From the NCBI GenBank assembly GCA_040220235.1, contig JAVJTO010000102.1: a stretch of 64,000 nt of DNA; one strand, given 5' to 3'. This document shows positions 14,894 to 40,852 of the stretch, one piece after another. The notes under the pieces were generated by a model. It was not told the origin of the DNA and made no database searches. It worked only from the letters and a program-made list of their open reading frames with translations. Each line of letters starts with the position of its first letter. The stretch's first letter is position 1. Both the position numbers and the translations under genes were made by a program. Source of the DNA: Coleofasciculus sp. B1-GNL1-01. Its GTDB lineage: Bacteria; Cyanobacteriota; Cyanobacteriia; Cyanobacteriales; Coleofasciculaceae.

Positions 14894-15226
14894 ATGGTTA
14901 ACCTTCAAGATATTCACTCACTCACTGATTTTAAGCGCAACGCCAGTAACTATATAGAACGCATCCGAGAAACGAAAGCACCAATGGTACTGACAATAAA
15001 CGGTGAGGCGGCTGTGATTGTCCAAGATGCCCTCAGTTTCCAACATCTACAAGATCGCCTCAAGGAACTCGAAGCGGAATTAGAGAAAGTTAAACTGCAA
15101 GCCTTACAGACAGAAATCCGTCAAGGAGTTGAGAGCGGAGAAGCCACACCACTTGACATTGAAGACGTGATCCGTCGAGGTCAAGCACGAAGTCTTGAAC
15201 GTCGAAGCACAGAGCAAGGTGTATGA
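14894..15226 (+). CDS. Type II antitoxin: Phd/YefM N-terminal domain with a ParD-like C-terminal tail
   Basis: SLTDFKRNA...PMVLTINGEAAVIVQD (Phd); KLQALQTEIRQGVESGEATPLD (ParD-like); upstream palindrome TCTAATTAGA at 14851. Confidence 0.8.
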   Translation: MVNLQDIHSLTDFKRNASNYIERIRETKAPMVLTINGEAAVIVQDALSFQHLQDRLKELEAELEKVKLQALQTEIRQGVESGEATPLDIEDVIRRGQARSLERRSTEQGV

Positions 15227-15540
15227 GCGAGATTTTCAAGCGTCCTCTTGCTCAGACAGATTTAGATGCTATCTGGGACTATCTCGAAGAAAATAGTAAT
15301 CAAGAGCAGGCAGCAGATTTTCTGAGAAAGCTTTATGCCAAATTGGAAATCCTTGCCCAAAACCCTTATATTGGGCGTATTCGTGACGAGTTGTTACCAG
15401 AACTGCGGAGTTTCCCATTTAGGAACTATCTGATTTTTTACTTTCCCCTGACGAATGGAATTGAGGTGGTGCGTGTGCTTTATGGGAGACGGGATATAGA
15501 GCGTATTTTCGCCGAAGAAGGGGAAGAGGAAGAAATGTGA
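15223..15540 (+). CDS. RelE/ParE family toxin (ParE-like)
   Basis: AQTDLDAIWDY, NPYIGRIRDEL, YLIFY, IEVVRVLYGRRD; ATGA overlap with the antitoxin. Confidence 0.9.
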   Translation: MSEIFKRPLAQTDLDAIWDYLEENSNQEQAADFLRKLYAKLEILAQNPYIGRIRDELLPELRSFPFRNYLIFYFPLTNGIEVVRVLYGRRDIERIFAEEGEEEEM

Positions 15541-19664: not shown

Positions 19665-19781
19665 GTTTTGTTGTCAAAGTCAACAGAGATTCAGTTTCTT
19701 AATAAATATTTAACCTAATTTTCTCCAAAAAGAGATAAAATGAAGGGCAATAAAATTCAGCTCAGATAAGTGAGATCGGCT

Positions 19782-19985
19782 ATGTCATCTAAAGTTTTTA
19801 ATTTGCTGTCTGACCTTGCCCAAGATACAAATAAGCGGGACAGATTTAACGAAAATCCTGAGGTCGTACTAGACGAATACGGAATTGATCAAGATATGAA
19901 GACTTTGCTCACCAGTGGAAAGTGGGAAGATTTTCAACAAGCCGTTCATAAAGAGGCTGAAGCATACGGCATGAAAGCACCCTAG
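19782..19985 (+). CDS. Putative RiPP precursor with a LigA-like / borosin-binding-domain-like helical leader (67 aa)
   Basis: LLSDLAQD...RFNENPEVVLDEYGIDQDMKTLLTSG resembles LigA/SonA-type leaders; 41 bp upstream of a RiPP radical SAM gene. Confidence 0.7.
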   Translation: MSSKVFNLLSDLAQDTNKRDRFNENPEVVLDEYGIDQDMKTLLTSGKWEDFQQAVHKEAEAYGMKAP

Positions 19986-20026
19986 TGCAGGATGGTAAAA
20001 GTTAAGTAACCGATGCAAGAGAGCAG

Positions 20027-22078
20027 GTGAGCCAAGGAGCAATTACTATCATGATGGTTGATGATCGGGTGACTAAATCGGCGGTAAAACCGTCCTTGCA
20101 ACAACAGGCAGACGTGGTTCTAGTGAGTATGCCTTTTGGTCCCCTGCTTCCCTCTATCGGACTAGGTTTGCTCAAGGCTTCACTTGCGCCTGCAAACCTC
20201 TCGACGAAAGTGTGTTACTTCACCCTCCGCTTTGCTCAACAGATTGGCATTTCCCGCTATAACGAGACAACAAGTGGGGAAGTCTCGGTGTGTGATTTGG
20301 TGGGAGAATGGGTCTTTTCCGATGCCCTGTTTGACTCAAGGGTGCAGGATGTAGAAAACTTTATTGAAGATGTACTACGGGGACGTTCCCCAACTCATCG
20401 TGGGTCTTATCCAAATAGTAAACCGGTTTCTGAAACCTTTATCCAAAATGTTCTGTACATCCGCAGCTTAGTTGAGAACTTTCTGGATGAATGCGTAGCA
20501 GAAGTTTTGAGTTATCGTCCTCGCTTGGTTGGGTTTACCAGTACGTTTCACCAACACGTTGCAGCACTGGCGCTGGCTAAACGCCTGAAAGCAAAAGCGC
20601 CAGAGGTGTTTATCGAATTTGGCGGCGCGAATTGCCAAGGTGTGATGGGGATTGAAACAATCCGCCAATTTTCCTTTGTAGATGCCATTATATCGGGTGA
20701 AGGCGATCGCGTGTTTCCAGAATTGGTTCACCGAGTTTTCCAGAACCAGCCTGTTTCTGATTTGCCAGGGGTTTATACTCGAAACCGGATTGATGCGATC
20801 GGCAATTATTGGAATTTGAATGCGCCGACTGTTCATCAGATGGATGCGCTACCCATCCCAGATTACGATGACTACTTCCAAGAGTGGGAGAAAATTCGTC
20901 CTCACTTAAGTGAACCTTATCAGCCACGACTCCTAATAGAAACCTCACGAGGATGCTGGTGGGGAGAAAAAAAGCACTGTACGTTTTGTGGACTCAACGG
21001 TACGGAGATGACCTACCGCAGCAAGTCAGGGACTCGTGCTTTGGAGGAACTGCTCTATTTGATTGATAAATATCCAGGTTATCCCATTTCTGTGGTCGAT
21101 AATATCCTGGATATGAAGTATTTCAAAGACTTGATTCCAGAGATGGCAGCACGCCAGCTTGATTTGGAACTGTTTTATGAAGTGAAAGCCAATCTCAGAA
21201 AAGAGCAAGTGCGACTGCTCAAAGATGCCGGAATTACGATGATTCAGCCCGGGATCGAGAGTTTTAGCACTCACGTTCTCGAACTCATGCAAAAAGGTGT
21301 TCGCGGTTTACAAAATATCCAGTTGCTCAAATGGTGTAAAGAGTTAGGTGTTACCCCGTTCTGGAATCTGTTGTGGGGCTTTCCAGGTGAAACACCAGAG
21401 GACTACAGCCAGATGGCAAATCTGATTCCGTTACTGACTCATCTGCGACCTCCTAAATGGGCAGGGGCAATCCGGATTGACCGCTTCAGCCCTCATTTTG
21501 ATCGTCCGGAAGAGTTTGGCTTTGAGGAGGTTGTGCCGTTTCCCGCCTATCATTATATCTATCCATTCGCTCCTGAAGCGGTTGCTAATCTTGCTTATTT
21601 CTTCACCTTTAAGTATTGTCAGCAGCAAGATGTGGAACGTTATACCCGTCGGGTGAGAGAAGAAATCATCGCTTGGCAGTCTGCCTATGAAACCAGTACC
21701 CTGTTTGCTGTAGACCAAGGGACAAGCCTACAAATTTGGGATTTGCGACCGATTGCCCATCAATTGTTAGTCACACTGACAGAACCCTTGAAGACGCTGT
21801 ACCTGGCTTGTGACGGTATCCGCACCGTTAACTTCCTGCACCAGTTGCTTGCAAACCGCTTCAGTTATGCTATATCAGTGCAAGACGTAGCAGAAATGCT
21901 TCAACCCTTGGTTGATCGGGGATTACTGCTCAACGAAGGCAATTCCTATCTCAGTTTAGCGGTGTCAGTGGGTGAGTATTCACCCGACAAATCGGTGTTG
22001 AAGCGGTTGGTATCACAGGTAACACAGCGAGGACATCAGGTGTCACGAGTCAATGATTACTGCGAAATCACAAATTGA
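20027..22078 (+). CDS. B12-dependent RiPP-maturation radical SAM C-methyltransferase (TIGR03975/PoyB-PoyC-like)
   Basis: LVSMPFG..PSIGLGLLKA, B12-binding VGFTSTFHQ/FGGANC, CX7CX2C motif GCWWGEKKHCTFCGLNG, QPGIES, RIDRFSP. Confidence 0.9.
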   Translation: MSQGAITIMMVDDRVTKSAVKPSLQQQADVVLVSMPFGPLLPSIGLGLLKASLAPANLSTKVCYFTLRFAQQIGISRYNETTSGEVSVCDLVGEWVFSDALFDSRVQDVENFIEDVLRGRSPTHRGSYPNSKPVSETFIQNVLYIRSLVENFLDECVAEVLSYRPRLVGFTSTFHQHVAALALAKRLKAKAPEVFIEFGGANCQGVMGIETIRQFSFVDAIISGEGDRVFPELVHRVFQNQPVSDLPGVYTRNRIDAIGNYWNLNAPTVHQMDALPIPDYDDYFQEWEKIRPHLSEPYQPRLLIETSRGCWWGEKKHCTFCGLNGTEMTYRSKSGTRALEELLYLIDKYPGYPISVVDNILDMKYFKDLIPEMAARQLDLELFYEVKANLRKEQVRLLKDAGITMIQPGIESFSTHVLELMQKGVRGLQNIQLLKWCKELGVTPFWNLLWGFPGETPEDYSQMANLIPLLTHLRPPKWAGAIRIDRFSPHFDRPEEFGFEEVVPFPAYHYIYPFAPEAVANLAYFFTFKYCQQQDVERYTRRVREEIIAWQSAYETSTLFAVDQGTSLQIWDLRPIAHQLLVTLTEPLKTLYLACDGIRTVNFLHQLLANRFSYAISVQDVAEMLQPLVDRGLLLNEGNSYLSLAVSVGEYSPDKSVLKRLVSQVTQRGHQVSRVNDYCEITN

Positions 22079-28955: not shown

Positions 28956-31253
28956 TTGATAACGATGATCAATCAGCCTCGATTTAAACAGTGCTTTCAG
29001 GTGGAAACGGTTGAACCAGAAACAGTATTTTTGTTGTCAGAGCGAGGTTCGATTCAACTCAATCGCCATCTCTATCAACAATTAGTCCCGTTAATCGATG
29101 GGCATCATACGGTTGAGGACATTATTGATCAAGTTCTCCAGGATCTACCGACAGAAACGATTTCATTTCAAGAGATGCTTAATACTAGCGTCATGGCGCG
29201 ACACGCCCTGATGCAGATGGAACAGAAGGGGTATATTGTTGAAAGTGAGTCTCTATTGCCCGATCATTTAGCCAGCTTCTGTGAGATGCTAAATGTTGAG
29301 GTTCAGCAGGCGTACCAGCGATTACAAAGGACAAAAGTAGCCGTAAGCTGTTTTGGTTCTCTAGCCAGTTCTGAGTTCCTATCGACGCTGGAATCCCTAC
29401 AGATTCAAGTGGCGGATCAGGGAGAGATTGATGTCGTCTTAACCGATGACTATTTACACGTTGATTTAGACGCATTTAATCAAAACGCTTTACAATCTCA
29501 GCGCCCCTGGATGCTGGTTAAACCCGTGGGAACGATGGTTTGGATTGGACCGATTATTCAGCCAGGGAAAACGGGCTGCTGGCACTGTTTAGCGCAGCGC
29601 TTACGGGATAACAGACCCATAGAACGCTTTATTCAAAACCAGCAAAACTGTTCTACACCGATACCGATTCCTTTAACCTCTTTTCCGGCTAGCGTCCAAA
29701 CGGCTTGGGGAATGGCTGCAACGGAACTCTTTAAATGGATTGTTCAGGGCGAAAATCAACGGTTAACCGGGGTTCTGGTGACTCACGATACCTTATCTTT
29801 AGACACCCGAAATCATCGTTTAGTGAAGCGTCCGCAATGTCCCAGTTGTGGATTGAATCAGCAGTTGAACCGTAACCCTTTACCGATTATTCTGGGACAC
29901 CGAAAGAAGCGTTTTACCACCGATGGCGGACATCGTTATTGTTCACCGGAAGAAACCCTGAAAAGTTATCATCATCACCTGAGTCCGATTACGGGTGTTG
30001 TGCGAGAATTGACTCGGTTAGAGACAGGGGTCAATCATTTAACTCATACTTATCTCGCCAAGCATCATTTTGCTACCTTGTTTGATGATCTCAACACCTT
30101 ACGCCAAAATCTTGGCGGTCGCAGTGCGGGAAAAGGTCGCACCGATGCTCAAGCCAAAGCGAGTGGGTTTTGTGAGGCGATTGAACGCTATTCTGGGGTG
30201 TTTCAGGGGGACGAAATTCGGGAAACAGGGAGTTATCAAACGCTAGGCGATCGCGTGATTCATCCGAATCGTTGTATGAATTTTAGCTCGAGTCAATATG
30301 AAACTCGTCAGGAATGGAATAGTAAATGTGCGGGGTGGTTTCAAAAGGTTCCCGAACCTTTTGATGAGGAACGAGAGCGAGAATGGACACCAGTTTGGTC
30401 GTTAACGGAGCAAGGGTTTAAATATCTGCCTACAGCGTATTGTTATTATGGCTATCCCCAAGTCGAAACAGCGGATTGTTGGGCAGATTCTAATGGGTGT
30501 GCGGCGGGAAATACGCTGGAAGAAGCGATCCTGCAAGGGTTTATGGAATTGGTGGAACGGGATAGTGTGGCGTTATGGTGGTATAACCGGATTCAACGCC
30601 CCAAGGTTGACTTAGAGAGTTTTGATGACCCCTATTTTTATCAATTAAACGAGTATTACCAAAGCCTGCATCGGGAACTCTGGGTGCTGGATATTACCAG
30701 TGATTTGAATATTCCCGTATTTGCGGCGATTAGTCGGCGATGCGATCGCGCGGTGGAAGATATCATTTTAGGGTACGGCGCTCATTTTGACCCGAAAATT
30801 GCCATTCAACGGGCGTTGACGGAGGTGAATCAGATTCTCCCTTCCGTGTTAAGGGCAAATGCTGATGGCAGTACATTGTATAATCCTGGGGCTGATCCGA
30901 TGGCGCTGGACTGGTGGAAAATGGCAACGGTGGCGAATCAGCCTTATTTAGTTGCGGATGAGACTAGGGCGGTAAAGGTACAGTCCGATTATCCGCAAGT
31001 GTGGAGTGATGACCTCAAAGATGATGTGATTCGCTGTCAGCAAATCGTTAAAAATCGGGGGATGGAATTGCTGGTGCTGGATCAGACTCGTCCTGATATT
31101 GGACTCAAGGTTGTCAAGGTGATTGTTCCCGGAATGCGCCACTTCTGGAAACGGCTGGGTTCGGGACGGTTATATCAGGTTCCGGTAGAATTGGGGTGGC
31201 TGAAAGCGCCGCTTCCGGAAAATCAACTCAATCCATTCCCGATGTGGATGTGA
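28956..31253 (+). CDS. Fused TOMM cyclodehydratase (RRE/E1-like + YcaO; TruD/PatD-like)
   Basis: WIGP..PGKTGCWHCLAQRL, RPQCPSCG, TDGGHR, SAGKG, CEAIERYSG, DSNGCAAGNTLEEAILQGFMELVERD, DQTRPD, C-terminal LNPFPMWM. Confidence 0.93.
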   Translation: MITMINQPRFKQCFQVETVEPETVFLLSERGSIQLNRHLYQQLVPLIDGHHTVEDIIDQVLQDLPTETISFQEMLNTSVMARHALMQMEQKGYIVESESLLPDHLASFCEMLNVEVQQAYQRLQRTKVAVSCFGSLASSEFLSTLESLQIQVADQGEIDVVLTDDYLHVDLDAFNQNALQSQRPWMLVKPVGTMVWIGPIIQPGKTGCWHCLAQRLRDNRPIERFIQNQQNCSTPIPIPLTSFPASVQTAWGMAATELFKWIVQGENQRLTGVLVTHDTLSLDTRNHRLVKRPQCPSCGLNQQLNRNPLPIILGHRKKRFTTDGGHRYCSPEETLKSYHHHLSPITGVVRELTRLETGVNHLTHTYLAKHHFATLFDDLNTLRQNLGGRSAGKGRTDAQAKASGFCEAIERYSGVFQGDEIRETGSYQTLGDRVIHPNRCMNFSSSQYETRQEWNSKCAGWFQKVPEPFDEEREREWTPVWSLTEQGFKYLPTAYCYYGYPQVETADCWADSNGCAAGNTLEEAILQGFMELVERDSVALWWYNRIQRPKVDLESFDDPYFYQLNEYYQSLHRELWVLDITSDLNIPVFAAISRRCDRAVEDIILGYGAHFDPKIAIQRALTEVNQILPSVLRANADGSTLYNPGADPMALDWWKMATVANQPYLVADETRAVKVQSDYPQVWSDDLKDDVIRCQQIVKNRGMELLVLDQTRPDIGLKVVKVIVPGMRHFWKRLGSGRLYQVPVELGWLKAPLPENQLNPFPMWM

Positions 31254-31434
31254 TCCCATAGATTGGTTATAACCCATCCTGAAAAATGATCCACTTGGTT
31301 TATTAAGAATGATGTACAACCATTGAATTTTCCGCCAGTGGAGTTAATAATATTCGTTAAAAAATAAATATAGTGCATTTAATCACGTTTACGATTTGCG
31401 GAATCCACGACAATACAATTGGAGAGTCTAACTG

Positions 31435-31995
31435 ATGAAAGACTGGGACGTAACAGCCTTAAGGCAATGGCATCAATCAAAATCTAGTCCTGCTAAATCC
31501 CAACCTTGCCCACCCCCCAAAAAACATCCTTGTGACTACGAGACATTTGCCAACCAGTTACTGAGAAAATGTAGATTACTATCCCAACTTATTGCTACCT
31601 CATGGTTAAATGGTGACCAAGCCAAACAGATCAGGGAGATATTCACCCAAGCTACAGGTCATGATGATTCAGAATTGAGGCAGTTGTTGACTGGAAAGAA
31701 ACCAAACTTGTGGAAACAGCCTATTTTTACTGACGAAGAAATAGAATTATATGAATTAAAAATTAGTTGGAATTCCTTTGAAGGTAAATTATTGGAGAAT
31801 GCACAAGCTGTTATATCACAGACACCTCCTTACTTTACACTGATCTTGCCTTATCCTCCACGCCCTGCCCTCGGAGAGTTTACGGTCACTTACGAACAAA
31901 TAGAAGAATGGACAACGGCAAGCATAGAAGAAGAGGACGGTTTAATCAAAAATCCCTTTCCTCCTTACCCCTATATCCCACTGACATCTTGCTAA
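31435..31995 (+). CDS. Hypothetical 186-aa protein; candidate NHLP-like YcaO substrate ending in ...PYIPLTSC
   Basis: SQLIATSWL and LILPYPPRP resemble the nitrile-hydratase-leader motifs (IAxAW; LvlP.xP); C-terminal Thr-Ser-Cys; directly downstream of YcaO; GGAGAG RBS. Confidence 0.65.
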   Translation: MKDWDVTALRQWHQSKSSPAKSQPCPPPKKHPCDYETFANQLLRKCRLLSQLIATSWLNGDQAKQIREIFTQATGHDDSELRQLLTGKKPNLWKQPIFTDEEIELYELKISWNSFEGKLLENAQAVISQTPPYFTLILPYPPRPALGEFTVTYEQIEEWTTASIEEEDGLIKNPFPPYPYIPLTSC

Positions 31996-32086
31996 TACAA
32001 CACGGCGGAAAATTTACCTAGAGTTCAAACTCTCTACACTTAGTCATGAAAGTGGTAAGCGTGTAAATCTCTGTATTTTCTCCAAC

Positions 32087-32116
32087 GAATCCCCCGCCCA
32101 AAGGATGGGGGATTTC
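32087..32116 (+). terminator. Possible stem-loop/terminator after the 186-aa gene
   Basis: AATCCCCC...GGGGGATT inverted repeat. Confidence 0.35.
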
Positions 32117-32193
32117 GCATTATCAGCATCCCATTTTAGAGGGGGGATTCCAAAACCGTAACTGTATCGCCGCCAAGCCAAGACTTAAAAATT

Positions 32194-33285
32194 ATGATTA
32201 ACGGATATCAAATTATTGATGCAGATGCTCATGTATTTGAGCCGCAAGACCTTTGGCAAAATTACCTAGAACCTGGGTTAAAGCAGTTTGCCCTGACACC
32301 ACCACCAGATATAACAATTCAGGGTGAAAAAATTTACCGCAAAATTTCTAATGACGTTCACAACTATGCGGTGAAAAATATCGGACGCAATCACCCGACA
32401 TTGGGCATACCTAATGGTTTTGACTCAGAATCTCAAGTTAGAGCAATGATGCAGATGGGAGTTGATATCTCATTTCTCTATCCCAGCCTGGGATTGTGGG
32501 TGATGGGAATCGATAGCATGACACCGCAACTGGCTGGAGCATTTACCAGAGCCTATAATAATTGGTTACATGACTTTTGTAGCTATAACCCGCAAATTCT
32601 CAAAGGGGTGGGAGCAATCAATTTACACGATCCCGAAGAGATGATCCCTGAATTGCATCGAGTTGTCGCCTTTGGTTGGAATGCTGTCTTCTTGCGCTCC
32701 AACCCCGTTCAGGGGCGACTACTGAGTGACCCCACCTACGAGCCATTTTGGACGGAGTGCGAAGCGCTAGGGGTAGCTGTGGGGATTCATGAAAGTGGCA
32801 GTCACAGTCGTTTACCAACCACTGGCGCGGATCGGTTTAACACCCGTTTTGGGATGCACGCCTGCTCTCATCCAATGGAACAGATGATGGCATTGTTAGC
32901 GCTGATTGAAGGGGGGGTGTTAGAGCGTCACCCTAACCTGAGAGTTGGCTTTCTCGAATCTGGCTGTGGTTGGTTACTCTATTGGCTGTGGCGTCTGGAT
33001 GAAGAGTATGAGGAGTTAGGTTGGGAAGTGAAGAATAACGTTACAATGAAGCCGTCCGAGTACTTCCGTCGCCAGTGCTTTATCACGATAGAGCCTTCTG
33101 AGCCTTATCTGGATCGGGTTATTCAGGATATTGGCGTTGATAACTTGCTCTTTGGTTCTGACTATCCTCACATGGATCACAAGCAGGATATTGTGACAAG
33201 AGCCGTGGCACTTCAGGAACAACTGGGTGAGGAAACGGTGCGAAAGATTCTTTGGCATAACCCTGTTCGTTTTTATGGATTGTAG
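32194..33285 (+). CDS. Amidohydrolase_2 family metalloenzyme
   Basis: IIDADAHV, AYNNWL, GIHE, FLESGCGW, LFGSDYPHMD. Confidence 0.9.
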   Translation: MINGYQIIDADAHVFEPQDLWQNYLEPGLKQFALTPPPDITIQGEKIYRKISNDVHNYAVKNIGRNHPTLGIPNGFDSESQVRAMMQMGVDISFLYPSLGLWVMGIDSMTPQLAGAFTRAYNNWLHDFCSYNPQILKGVGAINLHDPEEMIPELHRVVAFGWNAVFLRSNPVQGRLLSDPTYEPFWTECEALGVAVGIHESGSHSRLPTTGADRFNTRFGMHACSHPMEQMMALLALIEGGVLERHPNLRVGFLESGCGWLLYWLWRLDEEYEELGWEVKNNVTMKPSEYFRRQCFITIEPSEPYLDRVIQDIGVDNLLFGSDYPHMDHKQDIVTRAVALQEQLGEETVRKILWHNPVRFYGL

Positions 33286-33405: not shown

Positions 33406-36400
33406 ATGAACTTCACGACTGACTATCAAATTCTTGCCAAAATATACGAAAGCAATAATTCATTAGTCTATCGAGCGATTCTTCCCAAAAATCATCAACC
33501 CATTATTCTTAAGATTCTTAAAGAAGACTATCCCACTCCAGCAGAACTCAATCGATACAAGCAAGAATATGAAATAACCCGTTCCTTAAATCTGGAAGGT
33601 GTGGTTAAAGCATACAACTTACAGCGATATCAAAATAGCTTGATCATGCTATTGGAAGATTTTGGGGGAGAATCTTTAAGGAAATGGATGACCGAGTGCC
33701 AGTTTAATCTGAAAGAATGTCTCGATATTGCTCTAAAAATAACCGAAGGCTTGGGCGGAATTCATGCTGCCAATATCATCCACAAAGATATTAATCCATC
33801 AAATATTGTTTATAACCCAAAAACTGGACAATTAAAAATCATTGATTTTGGAATGTCTTCTGTTTTATCGCGGGAGAATCCAGCCGTTCGTAATCCGGAT
33901 CATCTGGAAGGCACGTTAGCCTATATTTCCCCAGAGCAAACAGGCAGAATGAATCGAGTGATTGATTATCGAACTGATTTCTATTCTCTGGGGGTTACAT
34001 TCTACGAACTTCTCACCTATCAACTTCCATTTAAAACGACTGATGCGATGGAGTTGGTGCATTGTCATATCGCTAAACAACCGATTCCACCTCATCGCTT
34101 GAGAGGAGGAGCAAATGAACTCAAGAATAGGGGGATCAACGAGATTCCTAAGACGGTTTCTGATATCGTCATGAAACTGATGGCAAAAACGGCAGAGGAT
34201 CGCTATCAAAGTACTTGGGGACTAAAAGCCGATTTAGAAAGCTGTTTAAGTCAATTACAAACTCAAGGTGAGATTTTAGAGTTCACTCTCGGTCAGCAAG
34301 ATATTTCAGATCAGTTTAAAATCCCGCAAAAACTCTATGGTAGGGAAACAGAAATCAAGAAACTGATAGCAACCTTTAATCAAGTGAGCCAAGGCACAAG
34401 TCAAATGATGCTTGTGGCGGGCTATTCAGGTGTTGGAAAGTCAGCATTAGTGAATGAAATTCATAAACCTATCGTGCGACAGCATGGGTATTTTATTTCC
34501 GGTAAATTTGATCAGTTTAAGCGGAATATTCCCTATGCTTCTATAATTCAGGCTTTCCAAGAATTGATGCGGCACTTGTTGACAGAAAGTGAAGCGCGTC
34601 TGCAAGCTTGGAGGCAAGAACTGCTAGCCGCACTGGGAAGCAATGGGAAGGTGATTACTGATGTTATTCCTGAAGTCGAAATAATTATTGGTAAACAGCC
34701 ACCCGTGCCGCAACTCGGTTCAACTGAGTCCCAAAATAGATTTAATTTAGTCTTTAAAAATTTTATTGGTGTTTTCACTAAAAAAGAACATCCTTTAGTT
34801 ATTTTTATGGACGATTTACAGTGGGCAGATTCTGCTTCTTTAAAGTTAATTCAGTTGTTAATGACTGAACCCGATATCCAATATTTACTCATAATTGGGG
34901 CATATCGAGATAATGAAGTCAGCGCCACACATCCTTTGATGTTCACCTTAGAGGAAATTGAGACTCATAATATAAATGTGAATACTATTACTCTTAAGCC
35001 TTTAACAATAGACTGTGTTAAGCAATTAATTTCTGATACGTTACACTCTTCGCAAGATGCAGCTAAACCTTTAGCTAATTTACTTTTAAATAAGACTAAT
35101 GGCAACCCGTTTTTTTTGACTCAATTACTTGAAAATTTATATCAAAGAAATATATTTTTATTCGATTCAAATACGGGATCATGGCAGTGGAATATTAATC
35201 AGATTCAAACTGTAGAAATAACTGATAATGTTGTTGAACTAATGGTCAGTAAAATTAAACGATTAGATGAGCCAACCCAAACTGTATTAAAATTGGCAGC
35301 CTGTATGGGCAACCGATTTAATTTAGATGTTCTCTCCGTCGTCAACTCCAAATCGTTGTCAAATACGGCTAACGATCTGTGGTCAGCCATACAAGAAGGG
35401 TTAATTATTCCGTTAAGTGATGATTACAAAATACCCCTGCTTTGGCAGAAAGAAAGCGAGTTAATTGACTCTGGAAAACCAGCCCACTCTCTCTTTTCGG
35501 CTCAGAAACATTCTATCTTTTATAAATTTTTGCATGACCGAGTTCAACAAGCGGCTTATGCTCTGATTCCCGATAACCATAAAAAAGAAGTTCATGTCAA
35601 AATTGGTCAATTATTGCTAGCGAACGTCAAAGAAAATGAACTCGATGAAAATATTTTTGCCATTGTTAACCAGTTAAATATTGGAGCCGAATTAATTAAC
35701 GAGCAGTCAGATAGAGATGAGTTGGCTCAATTAAATCTGATGGCTGGGAAGAAAGCCAGAGAAGCAACAGCTTATGAATCGGCTGTTAGGTACTTAACGA
35801 TAGGGTTAGATATCCTCTCATCAGATGCCTGGGAACGTCAGTATGACTTAACCCTGGAACTGCATATAGAAACGATTAAATCCCAATACCTCTGTACCCA
35901 ATTTGAGCAAGCACACAAGCTTTCTGCGGTTGTTCTAAAACATACTAAAACGCTGATTGATCAAGCTAAAGTGTATGAAATAAAGCTTCAATCCTACTAC
36001 TCGCAACTACAGTTCCAGTCAGCGATAGATACGGGACTTGAGATTTTAGCGAAATTGGGAATAGTTTTGCCCCAACAACCAAGCCAAAGGCGAATAAAAA
36101 AAGAACATAATGCATTCAAGTTACTTTTAGGCGATAAACGGATTAAAGACTTAGCTAATCTACCCGAAATGACGGCTGCTGATAAACTGGCAGCAATGAG
36201 AATCTTACTCGCGATCGCTTCACCTACTTATATTACTAATCCACCCTTGTTTGCGATGGTTGCTCATAGTTTAGTGACTCTCTGTATCAAGTATGGAAAT
36301 TCTAGTTTAGCTGTGGGGGGTTATATTAACTATGCTCTGTATCTATCTGGAATTGAAGGTTATAAAGAAGATGCTTATCATTTTGGTCAATTGTCTTTGC

Positions 36401-38880
36401 AGTTACTGGAAAAGTTTAATGCCCAACAATTTACAGCAAGAGTTCCCTTGATCTATAATACTCAGATTAAACATTGGAAAGAACATACTAAAACTACCAT
36501 AGAACCGTTACGAGAGGGATTAAATACCGGATTAGAACATGGGGATTTGGAGTATGCTGGCATGGCTGCAAATTCCTATTGCGCCAATCTATTCTTTATT
36601 GGCAAGAATTTGGATGACGTAGAACAACAGACCGCAAAGTATACTGAATTAATGCTCAAATTAAAGCTGGTATATTCTATACAATATTCCCAGGTTTTTC
36701 ATCAAACTGTATTGAATTTACTCAATCCCCCTATAGAGCAATTCAATTTAATTGGCAAAGCTTTTAATGAAACTCAATCTATTCCTAAATTAATAGAAGG
36801 AAAAAATTACTGTACATTGTGTCACTTGTATGCTAACAAAGCACTATTGTCTTTTTTATTCAAACATTATCAGCAGGTCATTGAACATATTAGATTAGGT
36901 CAATCCTACGCCAGTTCTGCTGCTGGAATGATAGCCCTCGTTCAGCTTAATTTTTATGAGTCAATAGGCAATTTAGGGTTATACTTTAAAGACCAGAGTT
37001 TAGAGAAAAAACAGTTAATTAATAAAACTAATATAAATCAAAAGCGTCTGAAAAAATGGGCAGCTCATTGCCCAGAAAATCATCAACATAAATATGAACT
37101 CGTGGAAGCGGAAAAAGCGCGGGTTTTGGGTCAACAAATCCCAGCCATGGAACATTATGATTCCGCGATTCGTGGGGCGAGAGAGCAAGGGTTCATCCAC
37201 GAAGAAGCCATCGCTTACGAACGGGCGGCGGAGTTTTATTTCTCCCTCGGTAGAGACGAAATCGGTAAATTCTACCTAAAAAACGCCCACCACTGCTACA
37301 CGCGCTGGGGTGCTAAAGCTAAAGTCAAAGCCTTGGAAGCAGAATATCCGCAAATTTTAGTTGGTGCAACCCATCGAACTGATAGTAAAGGGATTAGCAC
37401 CCGAATCTCTACATCGGGGCGTGATGCTCAAGCGTTAGATTTGTCAACGGTGATGAAAGCCTCGCAAACCCTCACCAGTGAAATTATGCTGGATAAGGTA
37501 CTGGCGAAACTGATGAATATTGCCATAGAGAATGCAGGCGCACAAAAAGGCTTTCTAATTTTACAATCCCAAATTGAGCCAGAGACTGAGCCAGGGAAAT
37601 GGGTAATTGAAGCCGAAGGTATCGTGGATTCAGAAGCGGTTAATATTTTGCGATCGCGTCCTGTAGATACGGTCGATCCTGACACCCAATTGCCCCTGCT
37701 GTCAACCGCTATCATCAACTACGTCATCCACACCAAGGAAAATATTGTCCTCAATGACGCCACCCATGAAGGACAATTTACCCGCGATTCCTATATCGTC
37801 GCCACTCACCCCAAATCCATCCTCTGCACCCCCCTCCTCAATCAAGGCAAACTAACAGGTATTCTTTACTTAGAAAATAACCTCGCCACCGACGCCTTTA
37901 CACCCGAACGAGTCGAAACCTTAAAAATTCTATCCGCCCAAGCCGCTATCTCCATCGAAAATTCCCGCCTTTACCAACAACTCGAAGCCTACAGCCGTAA
38001 CCTGGAAATTAAAGTTGATGAAAGAACCCAGGAACTCCAAGACAAAAATCAGGAACTCTCCGCCACCCTGAAAAAACTCAAAGCCACCCAAGATAAAATT
38101 ATCGCCCAAGAGAAACTCGCCTCCCTCGGTGCATTAACCGCCGGGATTGCCCATGAAATTAAAAATCCCTTAAACTTTGTCAATAACTTCGCCGAACTGT
38201 CGGCTGAGTTAACCGAAGAACTCTTAGAAGAACTCGACAGTCAAAAAGAACGATTAGACCCGGAAAGCACCGAATACATCGAAGAAATTCTCAGTGACTT
38301 AGAACAAAACGTAAAAAAAATCAACGAACATGGCAAACGCGCCGACAATATTGTGCGCGGGATGTTGATGCATTCACGGGGTCAAGGGAACGAACGCCAA
38401 CTCATCGATATCAACGCACTTCTATCTGAATATGTAAATCTGGCATATCACGGAATGCGTGCTAAAGACTCCTCATTCAACATCACCATTGAAACCGACT
38501 ATGACCCCACCCTTGGTCAAATTAATATTGTGCCGCAAAATATCAGTCGCGTCTTTCTCAATGTGATCAATAATGCCTGTTATGCTGCCCATGACAAGAA
38601 AAAATCCGTTGACACAGACTTTACTCCCACACTCTCCGTTACCACCAAAAATCTAGGCGATAAAGTCGAAATCCGTATCCGAGATAACGGTAATGGCATC
38701 CCAGCAGACATTCGAGATAAAATATTCAACCCCTTCTTTACCACCAAACCCACAGGTCAAGGAACAGGGTTGGGATTATCCATTAGTCACGATATCATTG
38801 TGGGAGAACATCAAGGGGAGATTCAGGTAGCAACTGAAGTAGGCACATATACCGAGTTTAAGATTATTTTGCCGCAATAA
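33406..38880 (+). CDS. Trifunctional Ser/Thr kinase - AAA/STAND ATPase - TPR-like region - GAF - histidine kinase (HstK-like)
   Basis: [24 protein letters not shown]; Walker A GYSGVGKS and Walker [57 protein letters not shown]. Confidence 0.93.
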
Positions 38881-39210: not shown

Positions 39211-39266
39211 GGGGAAAATGCTTAACAGTTTATGTCACTCTTGATAAATTGAGAGGAAAGGGAAAA

Positions 39267-39653
39267 ATGATAAAAGTCATGGTAGTCGATGATGAAAAAG
39301 ATGTTCTGTTGTTGTTTCGACAACGATTTAGAAAAGAGATTAGACAGGACAAAATTGAATTTCACTTTGCGTTCTCAGCCAAGGAAGCCCTCTACTATCT
39401 GGAAATGGAAAGCAAAAAAGAAAATTGTGTGGTCTTAATCCTGTCCGATATTAATATGCCGGAAATCAACGGCTTAGAATTACTTAAAACTATCAAAACC
39501 CAATTTCCCAGCTTAAAAGTTTTTATGATTACCGCTTACGGCGACGACGAAAACTATCGCCTGTCCCAAGAATACGGAGCTGATGATTATATTCATAAAC
39601 CCGTTGACTTTGACCAACTCAAAGAAAAAATCTTTAATTTATCCACAACCTAG
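39267..39653 (+). CDS. Single-domain response regulator (REC)
   Basis: VMVVDDE, LSDINMPEING, MITAYG, IHKP; ATG at 39267. Confidence 0.9.
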   Translation: MIKVMVVDDEKDVLLLFRQRFRKEIRQDKIEFHFAFSAKEALYYLEMESKKENCVVLILSDINMPEINGLELLKTIKTQFPSLKVFMITAYGDDENYRLSQEYGADDYIHKPVDFDQLKEKIFNLSTT

Positions 39654-39667
39654 CCGACTGAAAACCA

Positions 39668-40852
39668 ATGCCAGCCAAAATACTGGTTGTCGATGATGAA
39701 CCCGACATAGAACCCCTAATCCGTCAAAAATTCAGAAAAAAGATTCGGCGCAAAGAATTCCAGTTTAGCTTTGCCTGTAATGGTGTGGACGCCCTAGAAA
39801 AGATACAAGCTGACTCTGATATTGATATGGTTTTAACCGATATTAATATGCCCCAAATGGACGGGTTAGCCTTGCTGATGAAACTGGCAGCAGACTATCC
39901 AGCGATTAAAACCGTGATCCTGTCCGCTTATGGGGATATGAACAATATTCGAGCGGCGATGAACTTAGGCGCGTTTGATTTTCTCACCAAACCCATTGAT
40001 TTTCAAGACTTAGAAATTACCACCTACAAAACCCTCAACCATGTCCAGCAAATCAAACAAGCCTTAGCCCAAAAAAACTATCTCAAGCGCTTAGAAGCCG
40101 AAAACCTCCGCCTCAACACCGAACTCGATATTACCCGACGACTGCAACAGATGCTGTTACCCACAGAAACAGAACTACATCAAATTCAGGGACTCGATAT
40201 CGCTGGGTATATGCAACCCGCCAATGAAGTCGGGGGAGACTATTACGACGTACTGCAACACAATGGCAGGGTGAAAATTGGCATCGGCGATATCACGGGT
40301 CACGGATTAGCCAGTGGTGTCCTGATGCTGATGGTACAAACGGCGGTGCGGACATTGCTGGTCAATAATGAGACCAACACCGTTAACTTTTTCAGTACCC
40401 TCAACCAAACGATTTACCACAACCTACAACGGATGCGCTGCGACAAGAACTTAAGCCTGGTCTTAATCGACTATCATCAGGGAACTCTAACTGTGAGTGG
40501 ACAACATGAGCAAATGATTGTGCTACGCTCTGAAGGTAGGATTGAGCGAATTGATACGATTGATTTAGGCTTCCCCATTGGTTTGGCAGAGGCTATTGCC
40601 GACTTTGTGGCGGAAGCGACCGTACAGTTGTATCCCGGTGATGGAGTTGTCCTCTATACCGACGGGATTACAGAAGCCGAAGATATTAATGGGGTGCAAT
40701 ATGGGCTAGAACGGCTGTGTCAAGTCTTAAGTAACAACTGGCACAAGTCAGCCTGTGAGATTAAACAGGCAGTTATTGACCAAGTGTGGCAGCATATTGG
40801 AAACCAGAAAGTTCATGATGATATCACCTTACTTATTCTTAAGCAGCAGTGA
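39668..40852 (+). CDS. REC - SpoIIE/PP2C (RsbU-like) phosphatase
   Basis: ILVVDDE..TDINMP; EVGGDYYD, GDITGHG, LYTDGITEA, HDDITL. Confidence 0.92.
   Translation: MPAKILVVDDEPDIEPLIRQKFRKKIRRKEFQFSFACNGVDALEKIQADSDIDMVLTDINMPQMDGLALLMKLAADYPAIKTVILSAYGDMNNIRAAMNLGAFDFLTKPIDFQDLEITTYKTLNHVQQIKQALAQKNYLKRLEAENLRLNTELDITRRLQQMLLPTETELHQIQGLDIAGYMQPANEVGGDYYDVLQHNGRVKIGIGDITGHGLASGVLMLMVQTAVRTLLVNNETNTVNFFSTLNQTIYHNLQRMRCDKNLSLVLIDYHQGTLTVSGQHEQMIVLRSEGRIERIDTIDLGFPIGLAEAIADFVAEATVQLYPGDGVVLYTDGITEAEDINGVQYGLERLCQVLSNNWHKSACEIKQAVIDQVWQHIGNQKVHDDITLLILKQQ

Follow-up and report, generated by a model that had tools for sequence, protein, structure and literature searches.

Among the enzymes described so far, LynB7 uses Fe2+ and O2 to convert a thiazoline-4-carboxylate to a thiazole, whereas the amide is not accepted (Kudo et al. 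2023, PMC10127204). It belongs to the amidohydrolase-related dinuclear oxygenases (AROs), which are defined by a D-x-H and a D-x-P-H-x-D/E motif, both absent from the characterised hydrolases and decarboxylases of the same fold (PMC13154177), and a terminal Asp ligand is the residue of the LynB7/BarH type (PMC10127204). E0U9F9, which shares 59-62% identity with BarH, LynB7 and DolJ, turns phenylthiazoline-carboxylate into phenylthiazole and represents a dominant sister clade in which a thiazoline synthase is the neighbour in about 69% of cases; the pairing of YcaO enzymes with these oxygenases was published there in 2026, and its accessible text states that the product of the clade is not known and names no substrate (PMC13154177). 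Here we describe a locus in a stretch of 64,000 nucleotides (the window) from Coleofasciculus sp. B1-GNL1-01 (contig JAVJTO010000102.1), in which a fused YcaO cyclodehydratase, a 186-residue protein related to the nitrile hydratase leader peptides (NHLPs) and a putative ARO are encoded next to a large kinase. Judged from sequence, this is most likely a ribosomal, kinase-linked cassette that installs an azole at the C-terminus of a folded protein of the NHLP clan.

In a literature search that covered few subscription journals, neither the substrate family nor the kinase link of the YcaO-oxygenase cassette was found to be described. The evidence presented here is at the level of gene content, motifs, conservation and linkage, while reaction, binding and expression are predicted. 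The whole window is covered by sequence of relatives in four metatranscriptome contig sets, contigs which say nothing on transcription or operon structure, and a scan for promoters and terminators stayed at chance level (10 found, 9.1 expected).

Table 1. Features of the locus and their positions in the window
Coordinates	Strand	Feature	Basis
28956..31253	+	Fused leader-binding/E1-like/YcaO cyclodehydratase of the TruD/LynD/MusD type	TIGR03882, TIGR03604, PF02624, PDB matches
31435..31995	+	186-residue NHLP-clan scaffold, presumed precursor	Homologues, hhalign, tail statistics
32194..33285	+	ARO, BarH/LynB7-like putative thiazoline-4-carboxylate oxidative decarboxylase	PF04909, PtmU3 match, ligand motifs
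33406..38880	+	1824-residue Ser/Thr kinase-AAA_16-GAF-HisKA-HATPase protein	Pfam; conserved fourth cassette member
39249..40852	+	Single-domain response regulator and receiver-SpoIIE phosphatase	NCBIfam, Pfam, conserved order

The open reading frame (ORF) annotated at first as an amidohydrolase matches PF04909 (E 1.5e-33). Among PDB entries it matches the diiron monooxygenase PtmU3 best (E 2e-39), which leads all decarboxylases by over 20 orders of magnitude; PDB matches to the hydrolases and non-oxidative decarboxylases of PF04909 lie at E 1e-17 or weaker. All seven dinuclear-oxygenase ligands are present (D11, H13, H199, E255, D323, H326 and D328), with the N-terminal motif occurring as D11-A-H13 and the C-terminal motif, which has to follow after at least 200 residues, as DYPHMD at 323-328; D-x-P-H-x-D/E is conserved in 141 of the 147 distinct homologous loci. 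The protein is 67% identical to one labelled 'BarH protein' by its source and 59.7% identical (213/357) to an ARO that adjoins a 2887-residue, two-module nonribosomal peptide synthetase (NRPS) with a thioesterase, and is thus at the same distance from that ARO as E0U9F9 is from BarH, LynB7 and DolJ. The NRPS corresponds to BarG, and the arrangement is that of BarH. On these motifs and identities the window enzyme is most likely a diiron ARO of the BarH/LynB7/E0U9F9 type. The first-pass annotation was right in the direction of its proposal, a decarboxylation, but not in the class of enzyme, as the presence of both ARO motifs speaks against a hydrolase or non-oxidative decarboxylase of PF04909 (LigI, LigJ or GraF type); since the ARO class is oxidative, the loss to be expected is about 46 Da (CO2 and 2H) and not the 44 Da that had been suggested. 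Variants of the enzyme were also seen: the second motif ends in His instead of Asp or Glu in five loci, and an orphan oxygenase (L069:9541-10626), whose metal ligands are degenerate, has neither a YcaO nor a scaffold or kinase in its vicinity.

The first gene of the cassette was found to be an intact TruD-like cyclodehydratase, as first annotated, with TIGR03882 (190.1 bits, cut-off 36.9) and TIGR03604 (271.2 bits, cut-off 219.25) matched in one ORF. PF02624 is matched at E 8e-109, and the PDB matches are MusD (the best, E 2e-228), TruD and LynD. Translation probably starts at ATG 28965 and not at 28956, because the alignments of homologues begin at residue 4. A prediction of the YcaO-scaffold complex gave a score of 0.00, which bears neither way. 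Two further YcaO genes were observed in the same genome. One (L016:9574-12601, G000:C82), which also has MusD as its best PDB match, lies directly 3' of a gene for a 218-residue Peptidase_S74 (endosialidase chaperone) protein ending in Cys-Asn, with no NHLP seen nearby. The other (L015:9357-13931, G000:C22) is accompanied by a SagB dehydrogenase and a 118-residue NHLP without Gly-Gly; action of the dehydrogenase in trans on the window scaffold is conceivable.

Loci were collected from searches of genomes, plasmids and metagenomes, the oxygenase alignment being used for the metagenomes. A full-length oxygenase is present in 152 loci, 147 of them distinct, and 90 loci are well flanked, each side extending beyond 4 kb. 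In these 90 loci the YcaO was found in 82, the scaffold in 82 and the kinase in 80, with all three together in 71, whereas a flavin dehydrogenase occurs in four. The link between scaffold and YcaO that had been drawn from the window alone is therefore recurrent, and the three intact + strand ORFs first annotated are all in place, but the interval given for the system (28956..33285) left out the conserved kinase, which the three-gene view had overlooked. Among 401 sampled cyanobacterial genomes, 24 have the oxygenase, 22 the large scaffold and 19 both; within the window's family the oxygenase is present in 38 of 52 genomes. The three genomes with a scaffold and no complete oxygenase comprise one in which the locus is cut by a contig edge, one that carries a transposase but lacks the oxygenase, and one with TfuA/YcaO instead, and the kinase is present in all three. 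In this last locus (L223:1-10420, G280) a stand-alone thioamide-type YcaO was observed in addition to the C/D YcaO, and the tail of the scaffold is longer and rich in Gly and Ser.

The 30 window ORFs scanned contain no flavin dehydrogenase, in agreement with the first-pass annotation, and no PatA/PatG subtilisin proteases. No peptidase or transporter was found among these ORFs or among the annotated recurring neighbour clusters (not all clusters are annotated); an NHLP-type peptidase-ABC transporter is encoded on another contig of the genome. Optional tailoring genes were observed in some loci, namely radical SAM/SPASM genes in eight, O-methyltransferase genes in four and DyP peroxidase genes in ten. 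The DyP loci (L050, L051, L052, L089, L098, L107, L196, L213, L214 and L217) form a subtype in which one to three short NHLPs end in R-x-[CTS] and the DyP-type peroxidase is divergent. A protein of 475-560 residues without a Pfam or NCBIfam match occurs in 15 cassette loci (L043, L044, L057, L059 and 11 others), and its Atlas neighbours are unnamed clusters.

The 186-residue protein carries the motifs that were first noted, LIATSW at 52, LILPYPPRP at 136, SIEEEDG at 163 and the tail NPFPPYPYIPLTSC at 173-186, and contains neither a GG/GA dipeptide (the Gly-Gly leader cleavage motif) nor CxxCSC. Scans with Pfam and NCBIfam gave no match. We found 23 close homologues, and the matches of a profile search fell into 238 clusters (50% identity), the top 150 being listed. 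Among named relatives, Coleofasciculus records come closest, with 89-96% identity. The gene is single-copy in its own genome, and some relatives have two or three copies. A long subfamily (P0036-P0167; 58 proteins of more than 260 residues) was also observed, with lengths of 303-434 residues, an added N-terminal region and an internal insertion.

The relation to the NHLP clan was traced through shorter relatives. Related YcaO-oxygenase loci encode precursors of about 110-125 residues that match TIGR03793, TIGR03795 and nitrile hydratase (NHase) models below cut-off. An alignment of seven of these short precursors with an NHLP of the same genome bridges the families, since it matches NHase alpha at E 1e-14 and the proteusin precursor 8tb1 at E 4e-12, and hhalign of the 186-residue family against it gives a probability of 94.8 (E 5.5e-8); a further hhalign of the scaffold family against NHLP proteins gives 90.7 (E 1.2e-6). 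The AlphaFold2 model of the scaffold is compact and confident (pLDDT 88.5). When it was compared with 48,161 chains by VIA-align, NHase alpha ranked first (Z 3.3, rmsd 4.3, 101 residues aligned) and second (Z 3.0), and 8tb1 fifth (Z 2.5), all of these Z scores lying below the reliable level. The NHLP-like nature first suggested from short motifs thus finds support, and on its sequence the protein is best described as an expanded, divergent NHLP-clan scaffold. Membership of TIGR03795, the family of which the tail had been reminiscent, was not borne out: neither the window protein nor the 23 close homologues match the model at E 10, it is not among the 25 of 42 families listed for 109 members of the scaffold family, and the sole match in the genome lies at another locus with 13 bits. 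The short relatives beside related YcaOs score at most 29 bits (cut-off 41), and the 186-residue protein does not reach the cut-off of TIGR03793 either (50.9 bits).

The tail of the scaffold ends P-Y-I-P-L-T-S-C, so that, as first noted, the last three residues (T184, S185 and C186) are all cyclisable. An end of three Ser, Thr or Cys residues is found in 18 of the 5042 ORFs of at least 150 residues in the same genome, and the tail pattern of the family in one of them. In a set of 171 distinct homologues, in which a few apparently truncated rows were retained, 159 have [YF]-[ILMV]-P followed by three to six residues at the end. Ser, Thr or Cys occupy positions -3, -2 and -1 in 160, 151 and 126 of the homologues, against a background of about 13%, and Cys occurs at -1 in 51 and at -2 in 63, against a background of 0.8%. 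The Ser/Thr/Cys tail exceeds chance. Among 125 precursors from ARO loci (129 minus four fragments), the last residue is cyclisable and the penultimate is not in 31, the reverse holds in 15, both are cyclisable in 77 and neither in two. Since 31 of the 108 precursors that end in Ser, Thr or Cys have a non-cyclisable penultimate residue, the last position itself appears to be selected. The terminal class (Cys versus Ser/Thr) changes at least 18 times on a tree of 99 labelled rows; raw associations between oxygenase residues and this class fail an independent-pairs test among the rows listed.

Taken together, these observations suggest a pathway in which the YcaO cyclises T184, S185 and C186, the diiron enzyme caps the tail with a decarboxylated thiazole and the product is retained in the cell, a reading to which we assign a probability of roughly 60%. 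By analogy with its family, the fused YcaO would bind the NHase-like body and cyclodehydrate the three residues with ATP, giving a methyloxazoline, an oxazoline and a terminal thiazoline-4-carboxylate. The oxygenase would then, with Fe(II) and O2, turn the terminal ring into a thiazole by oxidative decarboxylation, a step proposed because of the motifs and the identity of about 60% to the BarH/LynB7 group with its published chemistry. LynB7 requires a free 4-carboxylate, and only a C-terminal ring would provide one. Homologues that end in Ser or Thr are predicted to yield an oxazole. In a last and less certain step, the tail would stay on an intracellular protein, because the scaffold lacks a Gly-Gly site and the locus a peptidase or transporter, and the modified protein would act with the adjacent Ser/Thr-AAA-His kinase. 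The first-pass annotation had expected the products to remain azolines for want of a dehydrogenase; the oxygenase would instead aromatise the terminal ring without a flavin enzyme.

Several observations weigh against this pathway. The oxygenase was placed in the BarH/LynB7 group through the NRPS-linked ARO and not through E0U9F9, LynB7 or BarH themselves. According to the accessible text of PMC10127204 and PMC13154177, LynB7 and E0U9F9 were assayed on small molecules only and not on protein tails, and ARO activity on oxazoline-carboxylates is not reported in this text ('oxazol' has no match in PMC13154177). The loci are related to one another and were chosen by ARO or precursor similarity, so that the counts are not independent trials, and in the locus where TfuA replaces the ARO beside scaffold, YcaO and kinase, the oxygenase is evidently not obligatory. 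The fold match between scaffold and NHase is weak (Z 3.3), Foldseek gave no match to the scaffold in the PDB, and the ESM Atlas gave no usable match, its own model being poor. The terminal Cys, whose conservation had been proposed as a check, is present in 12 of the 23 close homologues and in only 51 of the 171; in the 111 ARO loci with a complete precursor (L067 was reassigned, its Cys-ending piece being a frameshift fragment) the end is Cys in 47, Ser or Thr in 51 and another residue in 13. A non-cyclisable end, found in 45 of the 171 homologues, would call for an extra trimming step. The simplest reading of these tails is that the last ring matters; the oxygenase would take oxazolines too, and a minority of tails would be trimmed first. 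At the window locus itself the published chemistry applies without an extension to oxazolines or trimming, because the tail ends in Cys.

Four other explanations were considered, and their likelihoods partly overlap with that of the retained, capped scaffold because steps are held in common. In the main one, the chemistry is the same and a host protease frees a short peptide that ends in a thiazole, as do lyngbyapeptin and barbamide, with the kinase only regulating the process or sensing the product. The known ARO substrates are small (PMC10127204, PMC13154177) and NHLPs are normally removable leaders (PMC2887384), and the optional radical SAM/SPASM, O-methyltransferase and DyP genes as well as the peptidase-ABC transporter elsewhere in the genome would also be in keeping with a released product. 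Such a peptide is nevertheless unlikely, if a serious contender, since the scaffold has no GG or GA, a peptidase or transporter is found neither in the locus nor among the annotated recurring neighbours, and the core would consist of just three or four residues behind a conserved proline-rich linker.

A more doubtful explanation holds that the true core is formed by positions -3 and -2 and that the last residue is a follower, cut off by the YcaO or by a carboxypeptidase before the ARO acts on the exposed ring, in which case the end product at the window locus would be an oxazole from S185. The higher conservation of -3 and -2 relative to -1 agrees with it, as does the presence of Ser, Thr or Cys at -2 in each of the 13 ARO loci whose last residue cannot be cyclised, and trimming by a YcaO has a precedent in MusD, the best PDB match, which removes a terminal Gly-Val (PMC10885120). 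However, the 31 of 125 precursors with a cyclisable last and a non-cyclisable penultimate residue speak against a follower, and a MusD-like peptidase activity as a specific trait of the window YcaO is unsupported by the score ranking, as a different YcaO from this genome has the higher score against MusD (846 bits against 764).

It is quite improbable that the Ser/Thr-rich tail is mainly phosphorylated by the adjacent kinase while YcaO and ARO act elsewhere. Ser or Thr stands at -3 in 146 of the 171 homologues and the kinase accompanies the scaffold in all three precursor loci without a complete ARO match, but the enrichment of Cys at -1 and -2 would not be accounted for, the NHLP-clan fold is recognised by YcaO enzymes (PMC12455567), and no other precursor candidate is present in the locus. 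The least likely explanation is the one first put forward, a lasting thiazoline-carboxylate that binds metal or serves as a cofactor beside a hydrolase or non-oxidative decarboxylase: PF04909 does contain such enzymes and the locus has no flavin dehydrogenase, but both oxygenase-specific motifs are present, PtmU3 far outranks the decarboxylases, Cys lies within the last four residues of only 109 of the 171 homologues, and with the terminal ring aromatised the carboxylate itself would be lost.

The kinase provides a further line of comparison. Only five kinases of this architecture were found in the genome of 8.66 Mb, although one accompanies the oxygenase in 80 of the 90 well-flanked loci. The two genes at 39249..40852 likely represent the output of the cassette kinase: their order is the same in L007, L008 and L011, and the SpoIIE phosphatase is 90-97% identical across four loci of the same genus. 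When the window was compared with two loci of the same genus (L010 and L207), the YcaO was found to be 94-96% identical and the GAF-His kinase end of the kinase 83-98%, whereas identity falls to 70% in the oxygenase, 57-58% in the scaffold (which has a Ser terminus) and 33-80% in kinase residues 1-1200; in L212 the kinase end is kept at 94-98% and the remainder has diverged. This pattern is suggestive of scaffold, oxygenase and kinase sensor being exchanged as alleles against a fixed output, but a contiguous recombination block would yield the same pattern without functional coupling.

A tentative extension, which we regard as doubtful, is a signalling system in which a protein C-terminus receives, as the signal, a heteroaromatic cap that is irreversible and O2-dependent, and in which matched alleles of scaffold, oxygenase and kinase sensor are exchanged between strains. 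The cognate Ser/Thr-AAA kinase would sense the capped scaffold through its N-terminal or central part and pass the signal on by way of the conserved GAF-His kinase to the response regulators, with matched alleles as in self/non-self recognition or in a sensor of oxygen history. A large Ser/Thr kinase without a transporter has been described beside NHLP-Burk clusters (Haft et al. 2010, PMC2887384). The accessible text of Cox et al. 2015 (PMC4603692) mentions neither a kinase nor an amidohydrolase, and the main text of PMC13154177 has no match for 'precursor' or 'kinase', either of which may be shown in its gene-cluster Figure S15C.

Other systems were observed around these loci. At window positions 19770-22078, a 71-residue NHLP-like ORF (TIGR04351, E 2e-4) is followed by a B12 radical SAM C-methyltransferase (TIGR03975) for peptides that are made by the ribosome and modified afterwards (RiPPs). 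The latter gene (20027-22078) was considered as a cassette member and rejected, being absent from the loci of same-genus relatives and having its own NHLP-like neighbour. Together with genes for a 1693-residue hybrid kinase/cyclase and a DUF2887 protein, the pair separates a 378-residue histidine kinase from the YcaO; because these two adjoin in L008, L010 and L011, the pair looks like an inserted second RiPP system. A Phd/YefM antitoxin and ParE toxin pair lies at 14894-15540 of the window. In L107, positions 1-1000 adjoining the cassette show a regular repeat unit with unique spacers in the translations, suggestive of a CRISPR array. A different system was found at L186:1355-7684 (and also in L187), with a YcaO, a more distant oxygenase (53%) and Rieske ring-hydroxylase-like genes, together with two peptides of 56-57 residues with a terminal Cys; neither an NHLP scaffold nor the kinase was detected there.

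The scaffold family offers a candidate natural substrate for the large clade of diiron oxygenases that was tied to thiazoline synthases in 2026 without a product (PMC13154177). If the proposed pathway is correct, the terminal thiazole known from barbamide, lyngbyapeptin and dolastatin 10 would be accessible by a ribosomal route that needs no flavin, and the two enzymes would make a tool by which proteins or peptides could be given an azole cap. The tight kinase link makes the unexplained kinase association of NHLP-Burk clusters (2010, PMC2887384) testable, and suggests RiPP chemistry that serves intracellular signalling instead of an exported antibiotic.

In comparison with LynB7, BarH, DolJ and E0U9F9, the window enzyme has the same PF04909 fold and the same dinuclear site, whose seven ligands end in Asp; it is about 60% identical to an NRPS-linked member and shares with the E0U9F9 clade a thiazoline synthase as neighbour. 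LynB7, BarH and DolJ differ in that they act on NRPS products, whereas the substrate of the window cassette is apparently a protein C-terminus, often Ser or Thr in the family; for the YcaO-linked clade, neither substrate nor product is named in the accessible text of PMC13154177. The muscoride pathway of linear cyanobactins resembles the cassette in that a YcaO of the same group (MusD) acts on C-terminal Ser/Thr, but the window locus lacks PatA/PatG and a prenyltransferase, and its precursor is a folded NHLP and not a cyanobactin precursor.

The NHLP and proteusin systems (TIGR03793) share with the locus a body that, judged from sequence, is NHase-alpha-like, an I-A-x-x-W helix, P-x-x-P and a fused leader-binding YcaO. 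They differ from it in that the scaffold has no Gly-Gly site or long hypervariable core, its leader fold carries large insertions and no C39 transporter is found at the window locus. The NHLP-Burk systems (TIGR03795) show a fused C/D cyclodehydratase, an NHase-related precursor with P-x-x-P and no Gly-Gly motif 2, a C-terminal Cys (C186 here) and a large neighbouring Ser/Thr kinase, and they lack an NHLP transporter (PMC2887384); all of this is also seen here. In contrast to these systems, the 186-residue family has no hidden Markov model match, a single gene takes the place of a tandem or fused pair, the scaffold family spans 150-430 residues against about 115, and the cassette is cyanobacterial, includes a diiron oxygenase and has a variable last residue.

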